IMG/VR virus record: IMGVR_UViG_3300010158_000036
Coordinates: 32,001-96,000 of that record
Length of the DNA stretch: 64,000 bases
Source: a virus
Reading direction: 5' to 3' (one strand)
A program made the translations under genes and the position numbers. The notes below the pieces were generated by a model, which was not told where the DNA came from, made no database searches, and saw nothing but the letters and a program-made list of their open reading frames with translations. Positions 1-57,120 of the stretch are shown here, piece by piece; the stretch's first letter is position 1; each line of letters opens with the position of its first letter.

Positions 1-717
1 ATATGTGTATTTTCTATATGAGCTAGAATTAACTAATTCCGTCCATGAAGATAATCTTGGTATATTTTCTGAAATTCTATTATATAAGAAAAAAGGTGAA
101 CCAACAGAATCAAATAGCTTGGATCTTAACCATTCAGCAGCTCTAAGAGGACTTTGAATGGTGATAATCCCATCAAACATAGTTATTGGAAGTTTTTTTG
201 GTACAAGTAATTTTACATTAAGATCATCTTTAAAGATATTATAGATGTTTGTGAGAACATTGTTTTTTATAGACCGAGATATTTTTGTAAGAGCTGATAG
301 ATAAGCAAAATCCGATATAGCAATAAGAGAATATTTTTGAATATTAGGAGATGATGCTAACTTTTCATAATTAGGATATTCAAGAACTGTTAATTTCAAC
401 TTAATATTTTTTACGGGAGTTGCTGAATTGATTTCTGGATTATTACTAATCTTTTCAATTTCAATATTGATTATTTCTTGTCCATTAATACCAAAATCTT
501 CAAAGAAATTAATCGTATCTTTTATAGTTGCCGATAATGTTATTACTGGGGAAAACAACTCTTCAGTTATAGTGAAAGATTCTACAATTCGACGAATATC
601 TCTAACTTCATTCTTTGAGTTTGTTATATCAAACTTAATAAGATTGAAGGCGGATGGAATATTAGCAATTCCATTCTCAATACCCTTTGGTGTATTCCTT
701 GTAATGATATTAGTCAT
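1..717 (-). CDS. Baseplate hub/tail protein (gp27-like), runs off the window start
   Basis: Not in the ORF track. Manual translation from ATG 717: MTNIITRNTPKG...DIRRIVESFTITEELFSPVITLSATIKD...; open to position 1, directly downstream of gp53. Confidence 0.55.
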   Translation of the reverse strand, partial: MTNIITRNTPKGIENGIANIPSAFNLIKFDITNSKNEVRDIRRIVESFTITEELFSPVITLSATIKDTINFFEDFGINGQEIINIEIEKISNNPEINSATPVKNIKLKLTVLEYPNYEKLASSPNIQKYSLIAISDFAYLSALTKISRSIKNNVLTNIYNIFKDDLNVKLLVPKKLPITMFDGIITIQSPLRAAEWLRSKLFDSVGSPFFLYNRISENIPRLSSWTELVNSSSYRKYTY

Positions 718-45629: not shown

Positions 45630-46589
45630 TTATGCTATTTGTTTCTTAATTTTGCCTAGTGTATCAATAACATCATCGAGTTTATCATAAACACGTTCAA
45701 AGATTTTCTTATCTTCTAGTGTTCCTCCCATTTCATCAATGATTCTCTTTACAAAAATTGTTCTTGTAGAAAGAAGTTTTTGTGTAGCATTGAGATCCTT
45801 AATTATAGAATCTAAAGTAGTCTTCTCTGTCGTAGAGACTAATGATTCCTCGTTTAGGAATTGACGAAATATTCCTTTGATCTCTTTAATAACCTCGGAT
45901 TTCTTAGGGGATGTAGGCTCCCCTTCAATATAATCCATGAAGTCTCCTTCATACCAATCAGCAAATGTTTGGGACATAAGACCTCGTAGAATAGTTTCAG
46001 CAACCTCATCGGAAACCGATTCTGTAAGAGCTGTATCTTCCTTAAGCTTCATTAGTTTAGATAAAACAAGCTCGCTAGAACCTACTTTATATTGACCAAA
46101 TTTTATCTTAGTTAAAGGAGTATCTTTGCTTTTAAAAGTGACGGAATCTGTTCCAATCTCTTTTACAACACCGAAATTGGTTTTATCACCAACCTTTAAT
46201 GTATTAACTTGAGCAGCAATAGTTTTTGCATCAACCGCTTCTCCCATTTCTTCTTCAGTATCATCTTCTTCTTTGAGTTCACCCAAAGCCAAATCAGCTA
46301 AATCCTTGATGGTTCTCTTGCCATTAATAGCATTACCTTTAACTTTAAGATTTGTTTCACTTGAGTACATATCATTACCATCGAAATATACTGGATTAGA
46401 TTTAACTTTCTTACCAAGAAGAAATTCAACTTCTTTTCTAATTAAAGCATTGATTGCAGGTAGTTTATTATATGGAGTAACATCGCCAAGGGATAATCCT
46501 TCATTGATTGTTACTTGTTTACCTTGTAGAATTGCCGCAGCGGCTTCATACATATAGTCCTTGTTGGTGAAATTAATTGGATCGTGCAT
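45630..46589 (-). CDS. Acidic late protein, putative internal head protein
   Basis: Late promoter 46595-46602; MYEAAAAILQG; many (I/L)xE sites. Confidence 0.55.
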   Translation of the reverse strand: MHDPINFTNKDYMYEAAAAILQGKQVTINEGLSLGDVTPYNKLPAINALIRKEVEFLLGKKVKSNPVYFDGNDMYSSETNLKVKGNAINGKRTIKDLADLALGELKEEDDTEEEMGEAVDAKTIAAQVNTLKVGDKTNFGVVKEIGTDSVTFKSKDTPLTKIKFGQYKVGSSELVLSKLMKLKEDTALTESVSDEVAETILRGLMSQTFADWYEGDFMDYIEGEPTSPKKSEVIKEIKGIFRQFLNEESLVSTTEKTTLDSIIKDLNATQKLLSTRTIFVKRIIDEMGGTLEDKKIFERVYDKLDDVIDTLGKIKKQIA

Positions 46590-46867: not shown

Positions 46868-47851
46868 TTAGTCTTTGTCCATAATTTCAGATTTTACATT
46901 ATCCCAAATATCTAATGCTTTGTCTATATGATCATGTATTTCAGCAAAATCATCTGTATACCCTTTACCAAACTCCTTTATAATACTCTTTGCCAGATTA
47001 CTGGTAGGAGCAAAAGTATTATATGCATTATTAATAGCTTCATCTGCATTTTTGAATCCTAAAGATGGAATATACTTTTCTGCAATGGCTAGATTAATAC
47101 TCCTCTTGATATTTTTATCAAGTTCTTCTCTAATATTAATAGATTCTCCCAAAATCATTTCAATAGCCTTAATTTTCTTAGAAGCCCCGACTCCTATTGG
47201 TTTTATAATAACAATATCACATCCTTTTTCTCCTGGGAGATAATCTTGAACTTCAGGAGTAATTTCAATATCTTTAAGTTTCTTTATGATAGATTGAACT
47301 TCTTTATCTGATTGATTTACAGAATAACTCTTAGTGATTACAGTTTCTTCAAGAGATTCGTTCTTCTTTCTGAGTTTAGCTAAAACTGCTCCAGCAACTC
47401 GTTCTCCAGCTTCTTTTGAACCATATTCTTTAGCAGCTTTATCAGCAATTTTTTTAAATGTTTTACCGGGCTTTCCAATATCTTTACCAGCGTGAGCTTT
47501 CTTAGCACTATAATCTAGTTTTTCATCAATACCTTCACATGCATCCCACAAAGCTTCCTTTGCTTTCTCTTCTTGTTTATCACTCAATTCTACTTCGTCT
47601 CCATTCTCATCTTTTGCTGATAGGATTTCAATCTCCGCTTCATCATCTGGCTCCATTTGTTGACCATGTGCATCTTTACTACCTTTTATGGATGGGGTAT
47701 ATTCGCCAATCACAGAGATTTCTTTATCACCTTCATCATAGATTGTAGCTTTGATTGTTTTCTTAGTAGCTTCAGTAACCGCACCTTTCAGAATTGCTTC
47801 TGCGGCTTCATACATTTCATCTTTATAGGAATGGTAAAAATTGTTTTTCAT
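46868..47851 (-). CDS. Acidic late protein, putative internal head protein
   Basis: Late promoter 47857-47864 gives start 47851; MYEAAEAILKG; AGKDIGKPGK.F..IA.KAAKEYGSKEAG.RVAGA module. Confidence 0.55.
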   Translation of the reverse strand: MKNNFYHSYKDEMYEAAEAILKGAVTEATKKTIKATIYDEGDKEISVIGEYTPSIKGSKDAHGQQMEPDDEAEIEILSAKDENGDEVELSDKQEEKAKEALWDACEGIDEKLDYSAKKAHAGKDIGKPGKTFKKIADKAAKEYGSKEAGERVAGAVLAKLRKKNESLEETVITKSYSVNQSDKEVQSIIKKLKDIEITPEVQDYLPGEKGCDIVIIKPIGVGASKKIKAIEMILGESINIREELDKNIKRSINLAIAEKYIPSLGFKNADEAINNAYNTFAPTSNLAKSIIKEFGKGYTDDFAEIHDHIDKALDIWDNVKSEIMDKD

Positions 47852-47908
47852 ATATGTATTTATATTTATATGCAAAAAATCATCACATTTTGTTCTCATA
47901 ATATTTGT

Positions 47909-49126
47909 TTAATCACGAAACGGATCTTCAATATCATCTCCCGCCATAGCAACGCCAATCGGAGTTAAGGTATGAAGAATCTTAATAGTTTCTCCTTGAG
48001 CAGACAACACTTCATTCAATCGCTTATAGCAATGCGGAGATTCATCAGTACCAGCACCACGAAGACAAACTCCTGCATTTTTAACCCAATCAGTCATCAT
48101 AGTCTGAGATACAACTCCTTCAGACACCCGAGTCTTCTTACCCTTGATCCATTTGGAGCGACCCGCAGCCTGCGACCTAGAGAGTACGCGACCAGCTCCG
48201 TGAACTGTTGAGTACATTGCAATTTTTGATAGATCAGAATCAACACCTTCAAGAATAACAGAATCTTCTCCCATGGTACCACCAACAAATCCTTTTTGAC
48301 CAGGAAATGCGGGAGTTGCTCCTTTACGATGAACCCATAAATCTTCCCCATCATGATTTTCTAACCATGCAAAGTTATGATGATTATGAACTTCTTCAAA
48401 AATTTCAACACCAAGGATTCGAGCAACTTCAGCACACACCCAGTCTCGTCCAGTGTAGGCATATTCTCCAGCTAATTTCAAGGCTGCAATATATTCACGC
48501 CCTAGATCAGAATTAACATCAAGCAAAGCAGGAGCTACATTGATGCCATCAGTGCCGCCACCAGCTTTGATATAATGAGATGCAATCTTATGTCCAAGTC
48601 CTCGTGAACCAAAGTGAACACCTACCCAGATACGGAGAAATTCATCATGAAAAATATCAACGTAGTGATTCCCCGACCCAACAGTACCTAACTGATTACG
48701 AGCCATATCTTTGAGATCATTGAGTAAAGGAATATCATTCCATACAGGAGAATCAAATATAGCATGTTCATCGGGTTTCTTTTGTCTGACAATATGTTTA
48801 GAATTTGAAACACGTCCAATACCAAATGAGATATTACGAACAATTGTATCCATGATTTTTTCAATATCCTTATGAACATCAAGGAGAGTTGCATTAGTCA
48901 GAACAGCTAAGTTTCCGCATGCACAATCAAATCCGACTGCTGATGGAGAAATCTTATCTTTGTAAGCAATAATTCCGCCAATTGGGATGGAATAACCTAA
49001 GTGGTGATCTCCTGCCAATACAGCTTTATATCCGCCGAAATCCATTGCAAAATCCATCTGGTCAATTGCATTTTGTAATGGTTCCCCAAAGACGGGAATA
49101 TTTTTATTTTTACCTAGGAGTTGCAT
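47909..49126 (-). CDS. rtcB: RtcB RNA ligase
   Basis: DHHLGYS.PIGG, VGFDCACG, GTVGSGNHY, H.GSRGLG, HNHHN, HRKGATPA, HGAGR, DESP..YK. Confidence 0.95.
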   Translation of the reverse strand: MQLLGKNKNIPVFGEPLQNAIDQMDFAMDFGGYKAVLAGDHHLGYSIPIGGIIAYKDKISPSAVGFDCACGNLAVLTNATLLDVHKDIEKIMDTIVRNISFGIGRVSNSKHIVRQKKPDEHAIFDSPVWNDIPLLNDLKDMARNQLGTVGSGNHYVDIFHDEFLRIWVGVHFGSRGLGHKIASHYIKAGGGTDGINVAPALLDVNSDLGREYIAALKLAGEYAYTGRDWVCAEVARILGVEIFEEVHNHHNFAWLENHDGEDLWVHRKGATPAFPGQKGFVGGTMGEDSVILEGVDSDLSKIAMYSTVHGAGRVLSRSQAAGRSKWIKGKKTRVSEGVVSQTMMTDWVKNAGVCLRGAGTDESPHCYKRLNEVLSAQGETIKILHTLTPIGVAMAGDDIEDPFRD

Positions 49127-53047: not shown

Positions 53048-53782
53048 TTATACTTGAGCTTTAAATATTGTCAAACATTTTACTGACTCAGCACCAGCTT
53101 CTTGTAATGTTTGAAAAATAGATACTAAACTTGAACCGGATGCAATAACATCATCAATGATTAACACTTTCTTACCCTCAAATTTCTTTGCATTGCCAGT
53201 ATACGAAAACACATTCTTGAGAAACTTTCTGTAAGGAGGAAGAACCCATTTCATTTGAAAATACCCAAGTTTTACACCTCTCCGAATAGATGACTCTAAT
53301 TTCTTAATAGTAGAATCTGATAACTTCTTTGATTCAAGATCTAGTGTAATTTTGGAAGGATCTTCAGCTTTTACAAAAGAATCTAGAAGAAACTCAATTC
53401 CTGGATTTCTTTCTTTAATTTTCTGGGCGAAATCTTTAGTTAAAGATGAAGATGATTTCGGAGTAACAATGATATCGACATTTAAATCTCGAATAATTTT
53501 TGTTGCATACACAGCCGATCTATTAAGAAACTGATTATAGGCACTAACATCAATATGCATAGCTTTCAAGCGTTTAAGAATGATTGTTGCATCTGCCCCT
53601 TTTGAAGTATATAAATTAAAAACATCCAATGTAATACCTTCAATATTTTTTGTGTGTGGTTTTAATTCACTTTTACCGAATCTTAGATTGATTAGATCTC
53701 CAGCTTTAGACTCATAATCAATAATAACTTGATTATCGGAATTCAATGTCATTGATTCCACGAATTGCAGAAATGATTTCAT
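53048..53782 (-). CDS. Phosphoribosyltransferase-fold late protein
   Basis: PRPP loop VLIIDDVIASGSS; start MKSFLQFVES at 53782 after late promoter 53787-53794. Confidence 0.8.
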   Translation of the reverse strand: MKSFLQFVESMTLNSDNQVIIDYESKAGDLINLRFGKSELKPHTKNIEGITLDVFNLYTSKGADATIILKRLKAMHIDVSAYNQFLNRSAVYATKIIRDLNVDIIVTPKSSSSLTKDFAQKIKERNPGIEFLLDSFVKAEDPSKITLDLESKKLSDSTIKKLESSIRRGVKLGYFQMKWVLPPYRKFLKNVFSYTGNAKKFEGKKVLIIDDVIASGSSLVSIFQTLQEAGAESVKCLTIFKAQV

Positions 53783-53800
53783 TTTGTATTTATAAGAAAG

Positions 53801-53871
53801 TGGTGGAACTGCCGGGAATCTCACCCGGATCCACAACATTATTCATGTTATGTCGAAATAAATTCAGCCCC
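53801..53871 (-). ncRNA. Minimal tmRNA-like RNA (tRNA-like domain only)
   Basis: GGGGCUG...UUCGAC 5' end, G3.U70 acceptor, 3' CAGUUCCACCA, no D-stem, 8-bp hairpin in place of the coding domain. Confidence 0.75.
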
Positions 53872-53881
53872 TTTTTTAAAA

Positions 53882-53955
53882 TGGCATAGCATGTAGGTAA
53901 CGATCCCACGCCAAGAAGTTTGGAATTTCTGGTTCTACCATTGAACTAATGCTAT
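53882..53955 (-). tRNA. tRNA-Trp(CCA)
   Basis: Cloverleaf, loop UUCCAAA, G73, encoded CCA. Confidence 0.8.
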
Positions 53956-53964
53956 ATTTAAAAA

Positions 53965-54037
53965 TGGTCCGCGCCATGCCAACGCACATGGATAGGCAGA
54001 TTCGCAGTCTGCGACATTACTCTTATGCTACGCTCGG
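53965..54037 (-). tRNA. Atypical tRNA-Arg(GCG)
   Basis: gcaga-CUGCGAA-tctgc; bulged acceptor stem, 8-nt T-loop, CCA. Confidence 0.55.
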
Positions 54038-54045
54038 TTTAAAAT

Positions 54046-54120
54046 TGGTGCCTCTAGTAGGAGTTCAACCTACTTCATCAGTTTCGAAGACTGAGGTCCT
54101 ATTCGGTAGACGATAGAGGC
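54046..54120 (-). tRNA. tRNA-Arg(UCG)
   Basis: tcagt-CUUCGAA-actga, CCA. Confidence 0.9.
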
Positions 54121-54129
54121 ATATGAAAA

Positions 54130-54354
54130 TTACTCATTAGACAAACTATATGAATGCACTGCATTATAACCTGCAATCCAAATTCCAAGAACATGTTCAA
54201 GATTTTCTGGAGTTGTTTCAAGATTTAATTTTTTAAGAACCTTCTTAATAATATTTTTATCTACTTGAGTCAATCCCATGAAATTATGAACTAATCCACC
54301 TCTTTCTGATAAGACAGCTTCAGCGGCTTCTGATATTGATGATCGTTGTAACAT
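54130..54354 (-). CDS. Small late protein inside the tRNA cluster
   Basis: Late promoter 54360-54367; SISEAAEAVLSE. Confidence 0.5.
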   Translation of the reverse strand: MLQRSSISEAAEAVLSERGGLVHNFMGLTQVDKNIIKKVLKKLNLETTPENLEHVLGIWIAGYNAVHSYSLSNE

Positions 54355-54509
54355 AATATTATTTATATATTTTGAGAAACTTTCTATTGCTGGATAGAAC
54401 ATGAAATTAATTCCTATGTCCTGAATCTAACAGATCAAGATAAGGCATACAAGCCACAAGCTACCCGTTCTACATATAGTGTCGGACCTCTTGAATAACA
54501 TAAGAAAAA

Positions 54510-54585
54510 TGGCGGAACCGACCAGTTTTGATCTGGCTGCCTCCTAAGTGACAGTTAGGTGCTCTCCCGATTGAGCTACGGTTCC
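54510..54585 (-). tRNA. tRNA-Asp(GUC)
   Basis: cctaa-CUGUCAC-ttagg, CCA. Confidence 0.9.
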
Positions 54586-54591
54586 GTAAAG

Positions 54592-54666
54592 TGGTCCCGG
54601 TGGAGAATTTTGAAATCTCAACCTATCGCTTATCGAGCAATTACTCTGCCTTTGAGTTACACCGGG
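54592..54666 (-). tRNA. tRNA-Ile(GAU)
   Basis: attgc-UCGAUAA-gcgat (C33), CCA. Confidence 0.8.
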
Positions 54667-54676
54667 AATTAAAAAG

Positions 54677-54750
54677 TGGTACTCCTAACCGGGCACGATC
54701 CGGTCTCTAATCCTTGAAAGGGATTTGTTCTACCGCTAAACTATAGGAGC
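54677..54750 (-). tRNA. tRNA-Glu(UUC)
   Basis: aatcc-CUUUCAA-ggatt, CCA. Confidence 0.9.
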
Positions 54751-54765
54751 ATATTGAAAATTTAA

Positions 54766-54868
54766 TTAGTGTTGAAAGAATCAAACTTTCTCTTCAGTAA
54801 TTGTTTACTAATCCTATCGGACAAGAAACCCTTTGCTAGGGGCGTGCTATCATTACACTAAACACTAA
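54766..54868 (-). ncRNA. tRNA-like RNA with extra arms, no CCA
   Basis: tagtgtt/aacacta acceptor, D-arm, three small hairpins, T-arm gaaag-tttgatt-ctttc. Confidence 0.55.
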
Positions 54869-54870
54869 AT

Positions 54871-54962
54871 TGGCGGAAGAAGTGAGATTTGAACTCACGG
54901 GAGTTTTAAGGCTCCTCTAGTTTTCAAGACTAGCGCAATAAACCAGGCTCTGCCATCCTTCC
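54871..54962 (-). tRNA. tRNA-Ser(UGA)
   Basis: ctagt-CUUGAAA-actag, long variable arm, CCA. Confidence 0.92.
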
Positions 54963-54970
54963 ATTAAAAT

Positions 54971-55044
54971 TGGTGCCCCTAGCAGGAATTAAACCTACGT
55001 TCTCGCTTTAGAAGAGCGGAGTCCTTTCATTAGACGATAAGGGC
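54971..55044 (-). tRNA. tRNA-Arg(UCU)
   Basis: Loop CUUCUAA, CCA. Confidence 0.88.
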
Positions 55045-55057
55045 CATATATTAAAAT

Positions 55058-55132
55058 TGGTACACCCGCCGATAATCGAAATCGGTTAGTCGGATTAAAA
55101 GTCCGGTACATCGCCAGCAATGTTTCGAGTGC
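55058..55132 (-). tRNA. tRNA-Lys(UUU)
   Basis: Loop CUUUUAA, CCA. Confidence 0.88.
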
Positions 55133-55161
55133 ATTTTTGAAAATTAAAAAAGATGATATTG

Positions 55162-55225
55162 TGAGTGCAGATTTGAACTGCTCTTCCCCTTAGGATGTGC
55201 TTCCGAGTTACACCATATTCACTCA
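55162..55225 (-). ncRNA. tRNA-like RNA with truncated anticodon arm
   Basis: tgagtg/cactca, D-like arm, mini hairpin tcc-taag-gg, T-arm gcag-ttcaaat-ctgc. Confidence 0.5.
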
Positions 55226-55492
55226 TCATCAGAGAGTCACTCAAACATTTGTACTTCATGTTTGGCATTGGTAATTACTCAATGCAAAGTGACTCTCGTT
55301 AAAATTAATTCTGTATGTATATGAACTTTTCTACGCCTCTTCGGTTTTAACTACTTTGCAGTTTATTAGGAATTGCGAACCTAATAAGAGTATTCGTTAT
55401 TAATCTAAAGGAACTCATCGCATTGAGTTTCTCCAACGTATTTCATTGTTTGTACCTTATTGCTAAGGTTTTTTGCCATACAGAAAAAGGGA

Positions 55493-55564
55493 CTCCCAAG
55501 GTTGGTAACGCTCCAACTACCTAGTGTTTAACAGACACCCGCTCTGCTAGTGAGCTACTTGGGA
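55493..55564 (-). tRNA. tRNA-Asn(GUU), CCA not encoded
   Basis: Loop CUGUUAA, G73. Confidence 0.85.
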
Positions 55565-55572
55565 TTTAAAAA

Positions 55573-55659
55573 TGGTGGGTACCGGACGTTACGCTCGTCT
55601 CCCCCGTGAAAGGAAGTGTTTTACAGACACTCTTCAGGAACTACCTGATTTCGTTACCC
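55573..55659 (-). tRNA. tRNA-Tyr(GUA), atypical D-arm
   Basis: agtgt-CUGUAAA-acact, variable arm, CCA. Confidence 0.75.
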
Positions 55660-55686
55660 ATGAAAGTTATTTATACAGAAAGAAAG

Positions 55687-55778
55687 TGGCAAGCTGAAGG
55701 TGAGATTCGAACTCACGTGAGGAATTGAATCCTTCCTGATTACAAAACAGGCGCCATCGACCACTAAGCGACTCCAGC
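55687..55778 (-). tRNA. tRNA-Thr(UGU) with long variable arm
   Basis: Acceptor GCUGGAG/CUUCAGC, loop UUUGUAA, extra arm agga-ttcaat-tcct, canonical T-loop. Confidence 0.75.
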
Positions 55779-56477
55779 ATTATTATATAATTCAAAAAAT
55801 TTCTTAAAAATAGGACCATTAAAGGATATACCTATAGTACTAAATGCTTTACTCAAAACCCCATGTTTATCGTACTCTATTTTAAGGGCTTCAAAATTAT
55901 CTTTAACTATATTAGGTTTTGCTAAACATTCACACTTTCTAGAACAAAATCGCCTGGGGTATTTATTGGCAAATCGTTTTGAACAATTATCACATATATA
56001 TTGAAGCTCGAATTCTTTCCACTTATTACGACCTTTCACCCACCCAACAGGTATCGGAATCAATCTATTTACGCAAATATTTTCTTTTAATTCTATATTC
56101 GATATAAAATGATTTCCGAAATTTGGGTTACGGTCTCCTTTATTTGCTATTTTCATTATCTCAGATGTATATTTCGCGCATTCAATCCTAATCCATTCAT
56201 ACAATCTGGCCGATTTTATAAAAGGTTTATCAGGATCATTCGAATTCTTTCTTTGCATATTATGCAGTGCGAATGAATTTTGAGAGCATCTTTGAAATCT
56301 TGCAAGTAACAAATGAGCCATATAATGTTCTCTCGCAGTCAAATTTACTCTATTGTGTTTATCATCAGAACCACCTAAAGATGATGGGATTATATGATGA
56401 TTTTCCTTGTATCCAGAAGTTACTGGATTTTGTTGCCGATTTAATATAAGATCGTTATAGATTTTTTCATAGTTCAT
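55764..56477 (-). CDS. HNH homing endonuclease
   Basis: MNYEKIY..LI, ENHHIIP.SLGGSD...N.V.LTAREH..AH.LL; late promoter 56484-56491. Confidence 0.9.
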   Translation of the reverse strand: MNYEKIYNDLILNRQQNPVTSGYKENHHIIPSSLGGSDDKHNRVNLTAREHYMAHLLLARFQRCSQNSFALHNMQRKNSNDPDKPFIKSARLYEWIRIECAKYTSEIMKIANKGDRNPNFGNHFISNIELKENICVNRLIPIPVGWVKGRNKWKEFELQYICDNCSKRFANKYPRRFCSRKCECLAKPNIVKDNFEALKIEYDKHGVLSKAFSTIGISFNGPIFKKFFELYNNAGVA

Positions 56478-56666
56478 ATAATCTATTTATACTGAACTTA
56501 CACTACCAAATTACAAATATTGCACTGCACTAGCCGGAGTACAAAACCGGTTCATCGCTATCTATGATTTGGAAGCATATAGAAAATGTTCGAGTTGCAG
56601 TTTAATGCTGTAGGGACCCGTCGCTCCTGTAAGGCAATGCACCACACATTGCAGATTATTTGAAAA

Positions 56667-56743
56667 TGGTTGCGGATGCATTCTCTGCCCATGCGATCTT
56701 CGCCTTATGAGGACGACGAGATGACTGGATTCTCCAATCCGCG
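56667..56743 (-). tRNA. tRNA-fMet-like (CAU)
   Basis: C1:A72 mismatch, loop CUCAUAA, CCA; lacks the three consecutive G-C pairs. Confidence 0.75.
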
Positions 56744-56771
56744 ATTATAGTTATTTATATCAAACAAAAAA

Positions 56772-56846
56772 TGGTCCCCCCGGTTGGTGCTGCCCCAACG
56801 ACCTACCGATTATGAGTCGGGTGCTCTCCTGTTGAGCTACAGGGGG
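56772..56846 (-). tRNA. tRNA(CAU), probably Ile2
   Basis: ccga-CUCAUAA-tcgg arm typical of Ile2, CCA. Confidence 0.8.
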
Positions 56847-57032
56847 ATATATATAACCTCTGAGGATTCCTGTACCCCGATTATTTCATACCGACCGAGT
56901 TATGTCGGAATCTTGAATGTTTTCTCTGTGATTGATTCGAACAATCCCATCTTTCATCGTCACTCTATACTGCAAGGACGAGTTGAACGTCACCAATGTG
57001 TCATATTGCTCACCATGAGCTTCAAAGAAAAT

Positions 57033-57120
57033 TGGTACCGATGACGCGATTTGAACACACAAACTATTTAAAACGTGGGTTTTTAAGACCCAAGTGTATT
57101 TCCAGTTCCAACACATCGGT
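57033..57120 (-). tRNA. tRNA-Leu(UAA)
   Basis: tgggt-CUUAAAA-accca, variable arm, CCA. Confidence 0.88.

Follow-up and report, generated by a model that had tools for sequence, protein, structure and literature searches.

The window, i.e. the whole stretch of 64,000 nucleotides analysed here, corresponds to bases 32001-96000 of a 109,331-bp IMG/VR record that is ~53% complete by CheckV. The phage is a T4-like myovirus, whose baseplate wedge of the gp6 type shares 31-34% identity with those of Methylophilales phage Melnitz, of two Pelagibacter phages, Mosig and HTVC008M, and of cyanomyophages. The sequencing runs that contain the stretch (Logan contigs) are freshwater or lake metagenomes. A phage tRNA cluster occupies positions 53882..57120 of the minus strand, with 8 tRNAs called by ARAGORN and 3 more by Rfam; the latter (54595-54666, 54974-55044 and 56775-56846, minus strand) score 49-51 bits with Rfam and are not called by ARAGORN. 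Inside the cluster lies a homing endonuclease gene (55764-56477, minus strand), and ~5 kb downstream of the cluster a gene for an RtcB RNA ligase (47909-49126, minus strand, Pfam 211 bits), whose neighbours at 46868-47899 and 45630-46589 matched no family.

The last member of this cluster, on the same strand and 10 nt past tRNA-Trp, is a 71-nt element at 53801..53871. On the basis of its sequence, its fold, a covariance model (R2, described below) and a relative on the metagenome contig L138, we describe it as a tag-less mini-tmRNA gene of the "TLD only" kind; it is a genuine RNA gene for the tRNA-like domain (TLD) of tmRNA only. The minus strand from 53871 to 53801 agrees letter for letter with the RNA written out in a preliminary description of this DNA. 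Between the strands of a 7-bp acceptor stem stand 12 unpaired nt, a helix of 8 bp closed by 5 nt, a spacer of 3 nt and a T arm of 5 bp and 7 nt; ACCA follows. The 5' strand of the acceptor, GGGGCUG (53865..53871), carries the G3 of G3:U70. It is followed by the D-analogue loop AAUUUAUUUCGA (53853..53864), which forms no D stem and where the tmRNA-type UUCGA(C) motif is present and the usual GG is missing. Helix 2, formed by CAUAACAU (53852-53845) and AUGUUGUG (53839-53832), comprises 8 bp including one U:G, and is capped by the loop GAAUA (53844-53840). After the connector GAU (53831-53829) come the T arm CCGGG-UGAGAUU-CCCGG (53828-53812), the 3' strand of the acceptor CAGUUCC (53811-53805, with U70 and U69) and finally ACCA (53804-53801), i.e. 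the discriminator A73 and an encoded CCA.

The features of alanine identity are thus present in the acceptor—G3:U70, A73 and the encoded CCA—together with an additional G4:U69 pair. In the D-stem-less neck, the AAUUUAUUUCGAC loop and the 8-bp helix 2 are accompanied by GGAU before the T arm (GGAC in the relatives L138 and X5). The T arm keeps its 5-bp stem and 7-nt loop, and the canonical T loop U54 U55 C56 R57 A58 is absent: in this element and its relatives only A58 and the next two bases are retained. Helix 2 being closed by its 5-nt loop, there is no mRNA-like domain, resume codon, tag frame or pseudoknot. The GC content of the element is 46%, that of the window 33%.

The minimum free energy fold and the centroid fold are both identical to the proposed TLD structure. 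At -25 kcal/mol this fold makes up 71% of the ensemble (z -2.8) and was equalled by 2 of 200 shuffled sequences. Standard annotation is nevertheless blind to it: ARAGORN called neither a tRNA nor a tmRNA on the element and found no tag peptide, and no Rfam family, the tRNA family RF00005 included, reached its gathering score there. Under a permissive threshold (on 141 nt), Rfam returned a partial match to tmRNA_permuted, 23.8 bits for a gathering score of 47 and over the acceptor piece only, and a partial match to alpha_tmRNA at 14.6 bits. The latter is the best score of the tRNA clan at the element, those of tRNA, standard tmRNA and mt-tmRNA being lower or nil; the family tmRNA_permuted belongs to no Rfam clan. 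The comparison with tmRNA and mt-tmRNA models advocated in the preliminary description gave these two partial matches, but no match at gathering score and no listed match to mt-tmRNA, one further, lower-scoring match of the tRNA clan being left unlisted. Over the whole 109-kb record (~53% complete), no tmRNA family was found at the Rfam gathering score. An ordinary tRNA was also considered and rejected: 12 unpaired nt replace the D arm, and in place of an anticodon arm with its 7-nt loop there is a helix of 8 bp with a loop of 5 nt.

Next to the element, a 244-aa protein gene with a phosphoribosyltransferase domain (53048..53782, minus strand; Pfam PF00156, 43 bits) starts at an ATG at 53782, 18 nt beyond the end of the mini-tmRNA. 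This ATG is in frame with the longer ORF 53839..53048, which begins at the AUG opening the 3' strand of helix 2 and so reaches into the RNA gene by a 19-codon extension. The start at 53839 is a spurious extension, as the preliminary description had proposed: besides the in-frame ATG, the homology with the relative L138 and with the X5 contigs ends shortly past ACCA. No relatives of the phosphoribosyltransferase-domain protein were found in the viral contigs. Between the two genes lies TATAAATA (53787..53794, minus strand), 6 nt past the ACCA end and 4 nt ahead of the ATG at 53782, which we take to be the T4-type late-promoter consensus; it occurs at most 30 nt upstream of 14 of the 89 long ORFs of the 109-kb record. 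The regions upstream of these 89 ORFs are A-rich and strongly depleted in G, with a Shine-Dalgarno-like 4-mer in 10 of them. This composition and the position of TATAAATA hint at a host poor in Shine-Dalgarno motifs (e.g. Bacteroidota) and at late mRNAs with very short or absent leaders. As for expression of the mini-tmRNA, one metatranscriptome contig (X6, 53599-53824) covers only its last 24 nt, an overlap that may reflect read-through or DNA.

Scans of the viral contigs with exact and near-exact patterns of the window variant found nothing. Against cultured phages, megablast of the tRNA region gave short tRNA matches only, and blastn of the 71 nt gave partial, non-significant matches (E >= 0.6), some of them lying under annotated mycobacteriophage tmRNAs. 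The metagenome contig L138, by contrast with these, carries a 71-nt copy identical to that of the window at 64 of 71 positions, with all helices kept and ending a related cluster: tRNA-Arg(UCG), a degenerate tRNA-like spacer, tRNA-Trp, then the mini-tmRNA. Its T arm reads CCGAG-CGGAAUU-CUCGG, where two of the seven differences make a compensatory change from G:C to A:U. The others turn the U:G of helix 2 into U:A, the connector GAU into GAC, and alter three bases of the T loop (UGAGAUU to CGGAAUU). Homology stops 7 nt past ACCA, and half of the 10-nt 5' spacer is altered. A further variant, on the X5 contigs from another aquatic metagenome, has acceptor strands identical to those of the window, again U:A in helix 2 and C in the connector, the T loop UGAAAUU, one more nucleotide in the cap loop, and both flanks different. 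In this small sample of relatives (L138 and X5) all changes keep the helices. As the flanks diverge while the helices are kept, the conserved unit is exactly the RNA, and not the overlapping ORF. Besides, the mini form is also what the nearest relatives carry, and a full-length tmRNA was not seen at this place; nothing thus points to a recent deletion from a full tmRNA, the finding that the preliminary description had named as a refutation.

The same design is widespread in viruses. A short-form pattern scan found 14 viral contigs with elements of 65-84 nt, scans with a looser pattern and with an interior-only pattern returned at least ~120 loci each, and the TLD-only form is present in more than 100 viral contigs. 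A covariance model, R1, built from 11 seed sequences with the window element among them, selects at least 36 distinct viral elements of 62-84 nt; two MAFFT alignments (A1 and A3) whose 5' ends were misregistered were left out of the models. R2, built from those 36 elements without that of the window—its members having been gathered by R1—gives the window element 62.7 bits (E 3.7e-12 over 111.7 kb), as the sole match in the whole 109-kb record. It gives 59.5 bits to the copy of L138 and 56.2 bits to the published TLD-only RNA of phage DS6A, whereas T4 tRNAs reach at most 22.8 bits and none of the 11 tRNAs of the window reaches E<=1. Across the 36 elements, 97.9% of the cells are paired and double-change cells number 171, versus 45 in shuffled and ~20 in slid controls. 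The genomic context varies, since 9 of the 36 adjoin tRNAs. With the fold, the R2 score and the likeness to the DS6A RNA, the reading of the preliminary description—a tag-less tmRNA TLD with a capped helix 2, lacking pseudoknots and tag ORF—is upheld, and the window element is, by these sequence criteria, a divergent member of a published but barely charted class of the DS6A type.

The alanine identity of the class deserves particular attention. The first patterns imposed GGGG and UCCACCA; the interior-only scan (UUCGAC ... GGAC and the T arm) left the acceptor unconstrained, and its matches listed (L270-L381) yielded 87 distinct elements with an acceptor stem that can be closed. Among these matches listed, G1:C72, G3:U70 and A73 are found in 87/87 elements and G2:C71 in 86/87, while the pairs 4:69 to 6:67 covary freely, with G4:U69 in 3/87. 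This invariance of G3:U70, A73 and G1:C72 among the matches listed indicates that the nucleotides read by AlaRS are under selection in the class. The G3:U70 pair is the AlaRS determinant and is described as completely conserved in tmRNA (PMC3985003). The window element carries G1:C72, G2:C71, G3:U70 and A73; its G4:U69 beside G3:U70 may affect the recognition by AlaRS. CCA is encoded in 24 of the 87 elements among the matches listed, so that, judging from the genes, most minis would need the CCA-adding enzyme of the host or a 3' trimming. We also observe that C74 is nearly always present in the 87 minis among the matches listed.

The elbow follows another pattern. In tRNA, the elbow is made of contacts between G18/G19 and U55/C56. 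In the class (alignment A4), the dinucleotide of the D-analogue covaries with positions 1-3 of the T loop, GG going with UUC, AG with UGC or GGC, and GA with UUU, as expected from such contacts. Typical members have GG and UUC; the window lineage combines UA in the D-analogue with a T loop starting UGA or CGG, whose positions 1-4 differ even among close relatives (UGAG, UGAA, CGGA). From these few sequences, this lineage seems to have lost or relaxed the canonical pairs of the elbow. A G at position 2 of the T loop (UGCGAUU) does occur in genuine tmRNAs of Caulobacterales, but C56 is retained there. A tmRNA 3'-end pattern matched at least 120 very diverse bacteria (genome_contigs); among the matches listed none has a UGAG or CGGA T loop, and the scan gave no pointer to the host. 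The altered elbow makes the engagement of SmpB and the ribosome less certain for the window lineage than for typical members of the class.

The closest known counterpart is the RNA of Mycobacterium phage DS6A (NC_023744: 28478-28560; tmRNA Website; PMC4131195, PMC11915505), phage-encoded as is the window element and classed as "TLD only" by Hudson, Lau and Williams 2014 (PMC4131195). The two share G3:U70 and A73 in the acceptor, a ..UCGAC loop that forms no D stem, a helix 2 that is short and capped, a connector of the GGAC type, and a T arm of 5 bp and 7 nt; neither has a tag frame or pseudoknots, and both match R2 (62.7 bits for the window element vs 56.2). The DS6A form is 83 nt long with 69% GC, keeps GG and UUCGAUU, the canonical nucleotides of the elbow, encodes no CCA, and lies between protein genes of a temperate actinophage. 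The window copy differs in being 71 nt long with 46% GC, without GG and UUC, with G4:U69 and an encoded CCA, and in standing last in the tRNA cluster of a freshwater T4-like phage. The preliminary description had held that such a reduction is known mainly from protist mitochondria; this overstated the novelty, as the DS6A form is published together with the idea of a decoy (PMC4131195, PMC11915505) and more than 100 viral contigs carry the form.

The TLD of bacterial tmRNA (SsrA; RF00023, RF01849, RF04321) shows the same GGGGCUG start, UUCGAC, G3:U70/A73/CCA and T arm; there too the D stem is absent and helix 2 is stacked in the place of the anticodon stem (PMC3985003). Unlike it, the window element is devoid of pseudoknots and of an mRNA-like domain with its resume codon and tag ORF, has lost C56, and reaches the Rfam gathering score of no tmRNA family. 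An identical reduction, down to the TLD, is described for the tmRNAs without CDS of jakobid mitochondria and of Mallomonadaceae plastids (~65 bp; PMC11915505). By contrast with the phage mini form, these organellar RNAs co-occur with a nucleus-encoded SmpB according to the same source (PMC11915505); they presumably serve their own ribosomes, and not interference with a host. In T4, the same place is taken by two small stable RNAs, rnaC (species 1) and rnaD (species 2): they end a tRNA cluster that lies on the minus strand and has a homing endonuclease gene inside it, segB (L148:5254-5919), so that the layout mirrors that of the window. The T arm of rnaC is CCGGG-UUCGAAU-CCCGG. However, these RNAs are 139 and 119 nt long, without the G3:U70/ACCA alanine acceptor end and without the UUCGAC neck. 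They were rejected as relatives: R2 gives rnaC 18.7 bits, no better than T4 tRNAs, and the analogy is positional only. Another source might have been the complete two-piece tmRNAs carried by phages of the Melnitz type (PMC9004378). That of Melnitz scores 113 bits with tmRNA_permuted, in another kind of locus; the mini form was not found in Melnitz, and since acceptor, D-analogue and T loop all differ, a derivation from it was rejected as well.

We propose the following mode of action. The mini-tmRNA gene would be co-transcribed with the phage tRNA cluster and its product excised like a tRNA. AlaRS of the host would charge it with alanine via G3:U70 and A73, and SmpB of the host would bind the D-stem-less UUCGAC/GGAU neck and the short helix 2, the deformed D arm of the TLD being the region contacted by SmpB (PMC3985003). 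No SmpB gene was found in the 109-kb record (~53% complete), and it is therefore the host SmpB that would have to serve. Since there is neither a resume codon nor a tag frame, the trans-translation tagging of unfinished proteins would fall during infection. The most likely action, which we would put at about an even chance from the sequence and from the analogy with DS6A, is that of an alanine-chargeable, SmpB-binding mimic competing with the host tmRNA for SmpB; AlaRS, EF-Tu and the A site may be contested too. Competition for SmpB is taken as the likeliest action on account of the published inhibition by DS6A: a DS6A-like molecule, chargeable or not, is reported to inhibit tmRNA strongly, perhaps by SmpB titration (Mao et al. 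2009, in PMC4131195), and the DS6A form to inhibit the endogenous tmRNA in E. coli (PMC11915505, citing Mao et al. 2009). The two functions advanced in the preliminary description, a decoy of SmpB and a rescue without tagging, are the two best hypotheses.

The second of these, to which we grant a rather low probability, supposes that the alanine-charged mini form enters stalled ribosomes with SmpB and EF-Tu and accepts the nascent chain, the peptidyl-RNA being then released by drop-off with Pth or by a factor of the ArfB type. Ribosomes would be recycled during the breakdown of host mRNA, and the phage proteins would escape being marked for proteolysis. As inhibition is reported without need for charging, the strict alanine set, 87/87 among the matches listed, is left unexplained by simple SmpB titration, which favours a role requiring aminoacylation. 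The tmRNAs without CDS of mitochondria and some plastids, conserved together with SmpB, are thought to aid with incomplete mRNAs (PMC11915505), and the gene is part of a tRNA operon in a phage with an RtcB gene as well, i.e. it is found among genes for the maintenance of translation. On the other hand, the 109-kb record (~53% complete) yielded no gene for Pth or for a factor of the RF-1/ArfB type, so that no release mechanism is apparent, the altered elbow may impede the accommodation in the ribosome, and the sole experimental precedent is one of inhibition, not of rescue (PMC4131195, PMC11915505). Extended to the whole class, the idea becomes that phages widely use alanine-charged, tag-less mini-tmRNAs to free stalled ribosomes without SsrA tagging, and not as a passive sponge for SmpB, the window lineage being a further-reduced form with an altered elbow or a different partner. 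Such an active use without tagging would explain the invariant alanine identity set; we mention it tentatively, as possible but hardly probable.

The remaining explanations do not make trans-translation the target, or deny a function to the element by itself. It is unlikely, in our opinion, that the tRNA-like module has another job, as a processing or stabilising signal for RNase P/RNase Z or as an acceptor-end decoy for defence nucleases, RNase R or the CCA enzyme. Its position as last unit of the cluster, 18 nt ahead of the next ATG, would suit such a role, and T4 places rnaD and rnaC, small stable RNAs of unknown function, at the same point; positions 1-4 of the T loop are weakly constrained in the window lineage, and only 9 of the 36 class members adjoin tRNAs. 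Yet a processing signal needs neither G3:U70 nor A73 nor the tmRNA-specific UUCGAC...GGAY neck, which are all conserved, the downstream flank does not share the conservation of the element, and rnaC remains at the level of tRNAs with R2 (18.7 bits). We hold it very improbable that the element is a functionless, decaying relic of a tRNA-Ala or of a tmRNA that lost its middle. Certainly the non-canonical T loop, the missing elbow nucleotides and the second G:U pair could be seen as decay, and there is a degenerate tRNA-like element 97 nt upstream. But in relatives the spacers have diverged, whereas compensatory and wobble changes preserve all three helices; more than 100 viral contigs, unrelated to one another, show the same architecture with strong covariation; and the best tRNA-clan match, apart from the partial match to tmRNA_permuted, is alpha_tmRNA with 14.6 bits. 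Finally, the element might belong to a two-piece (permuted) tmRNA, as its acceptor piece, with the coding piece encoded at another place in the genome. The top partial match in Rfam is precisely the acceptor piece of tmRNA_permuted (23.8 bits), the distant relatives Melnitz and Mosig carry two-piece tmRNAs (PMC9004378), and the record holds only ~53% of the genome. This explanation is nevertheless barely credible: the 71 nt themselves contain GGGGCUG, which closes the acceptor stem, as well as the D-analogue, and helix 2 ends in a loop of its own, so that no strand is free for pairing with a coding piece. Moreover no tmRNA family reaches the gathering score in the 109 kb, and the TLD of Melnitz is unlike that of the window in acceptor, D-analogue and T loop.

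Trans-translation is the main path of ribosome rescue and quality control in bacteria. To our knowledge, its handling by phages has hardly been studied, and the literature holds one TLD-only phage tmRNA, that of DS6A. The window adds a very small, AT-rich and divergent example from an uncultivated freshwater T4-like phage. Taken together, the commonness of the form in viral contigs and its invariant alanine nucleotides point to a widespread phage strategy acting on SmpB, tmRNA or AlaRS. For annotation, it matters that mini-tmRNA genes are overlooked by tRNA and tmRNA finders and by Rfam, and that ORF callers overlay them with spurious protein starts.

Some neighbouring or related elements may be mentioned. 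In the window, a tRNA-like element separate from the mini-tmRNA (53968..54037, minus strand) lies between tRNA-Arg and tRNA-Trp, 97 nt upstream of the mini-tmRNA; with the anticodon GCG it scores 24.5 bits as a tRNA in Rfam, where the gathering score is 29. The anticodon loop reads CUGCGAA (GCG, Arg), the 3' strand of the acceptor is 2 nt short and the T loop has 8 nt; in L138 the element bears a ~23-nt insertion within the anticodon arm and is otherwise conserved. It may be a decayed tRNA, or else one more tRNA mimic without a decoding role. In the class, many members of ~80 nt (alignment A4, L002-L134) share a helix-2 motif, (G/U)UAA(A/G)GCC ... GCA. Two minis of 65 nt, at L005:243-307 and L007:312-376 (both on the plus strand), have 6-nt T loops and a very short helix 2, and may represent a still smaller subclass. 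On L134, two adjacent R1 matches (157-224 and 231-308, minus strand; 59.5 and 34.5 bits) stand 7 nt apart beside tRNAs, and may be a tandem of a mini-tmRNA and a tRNA-like relative.
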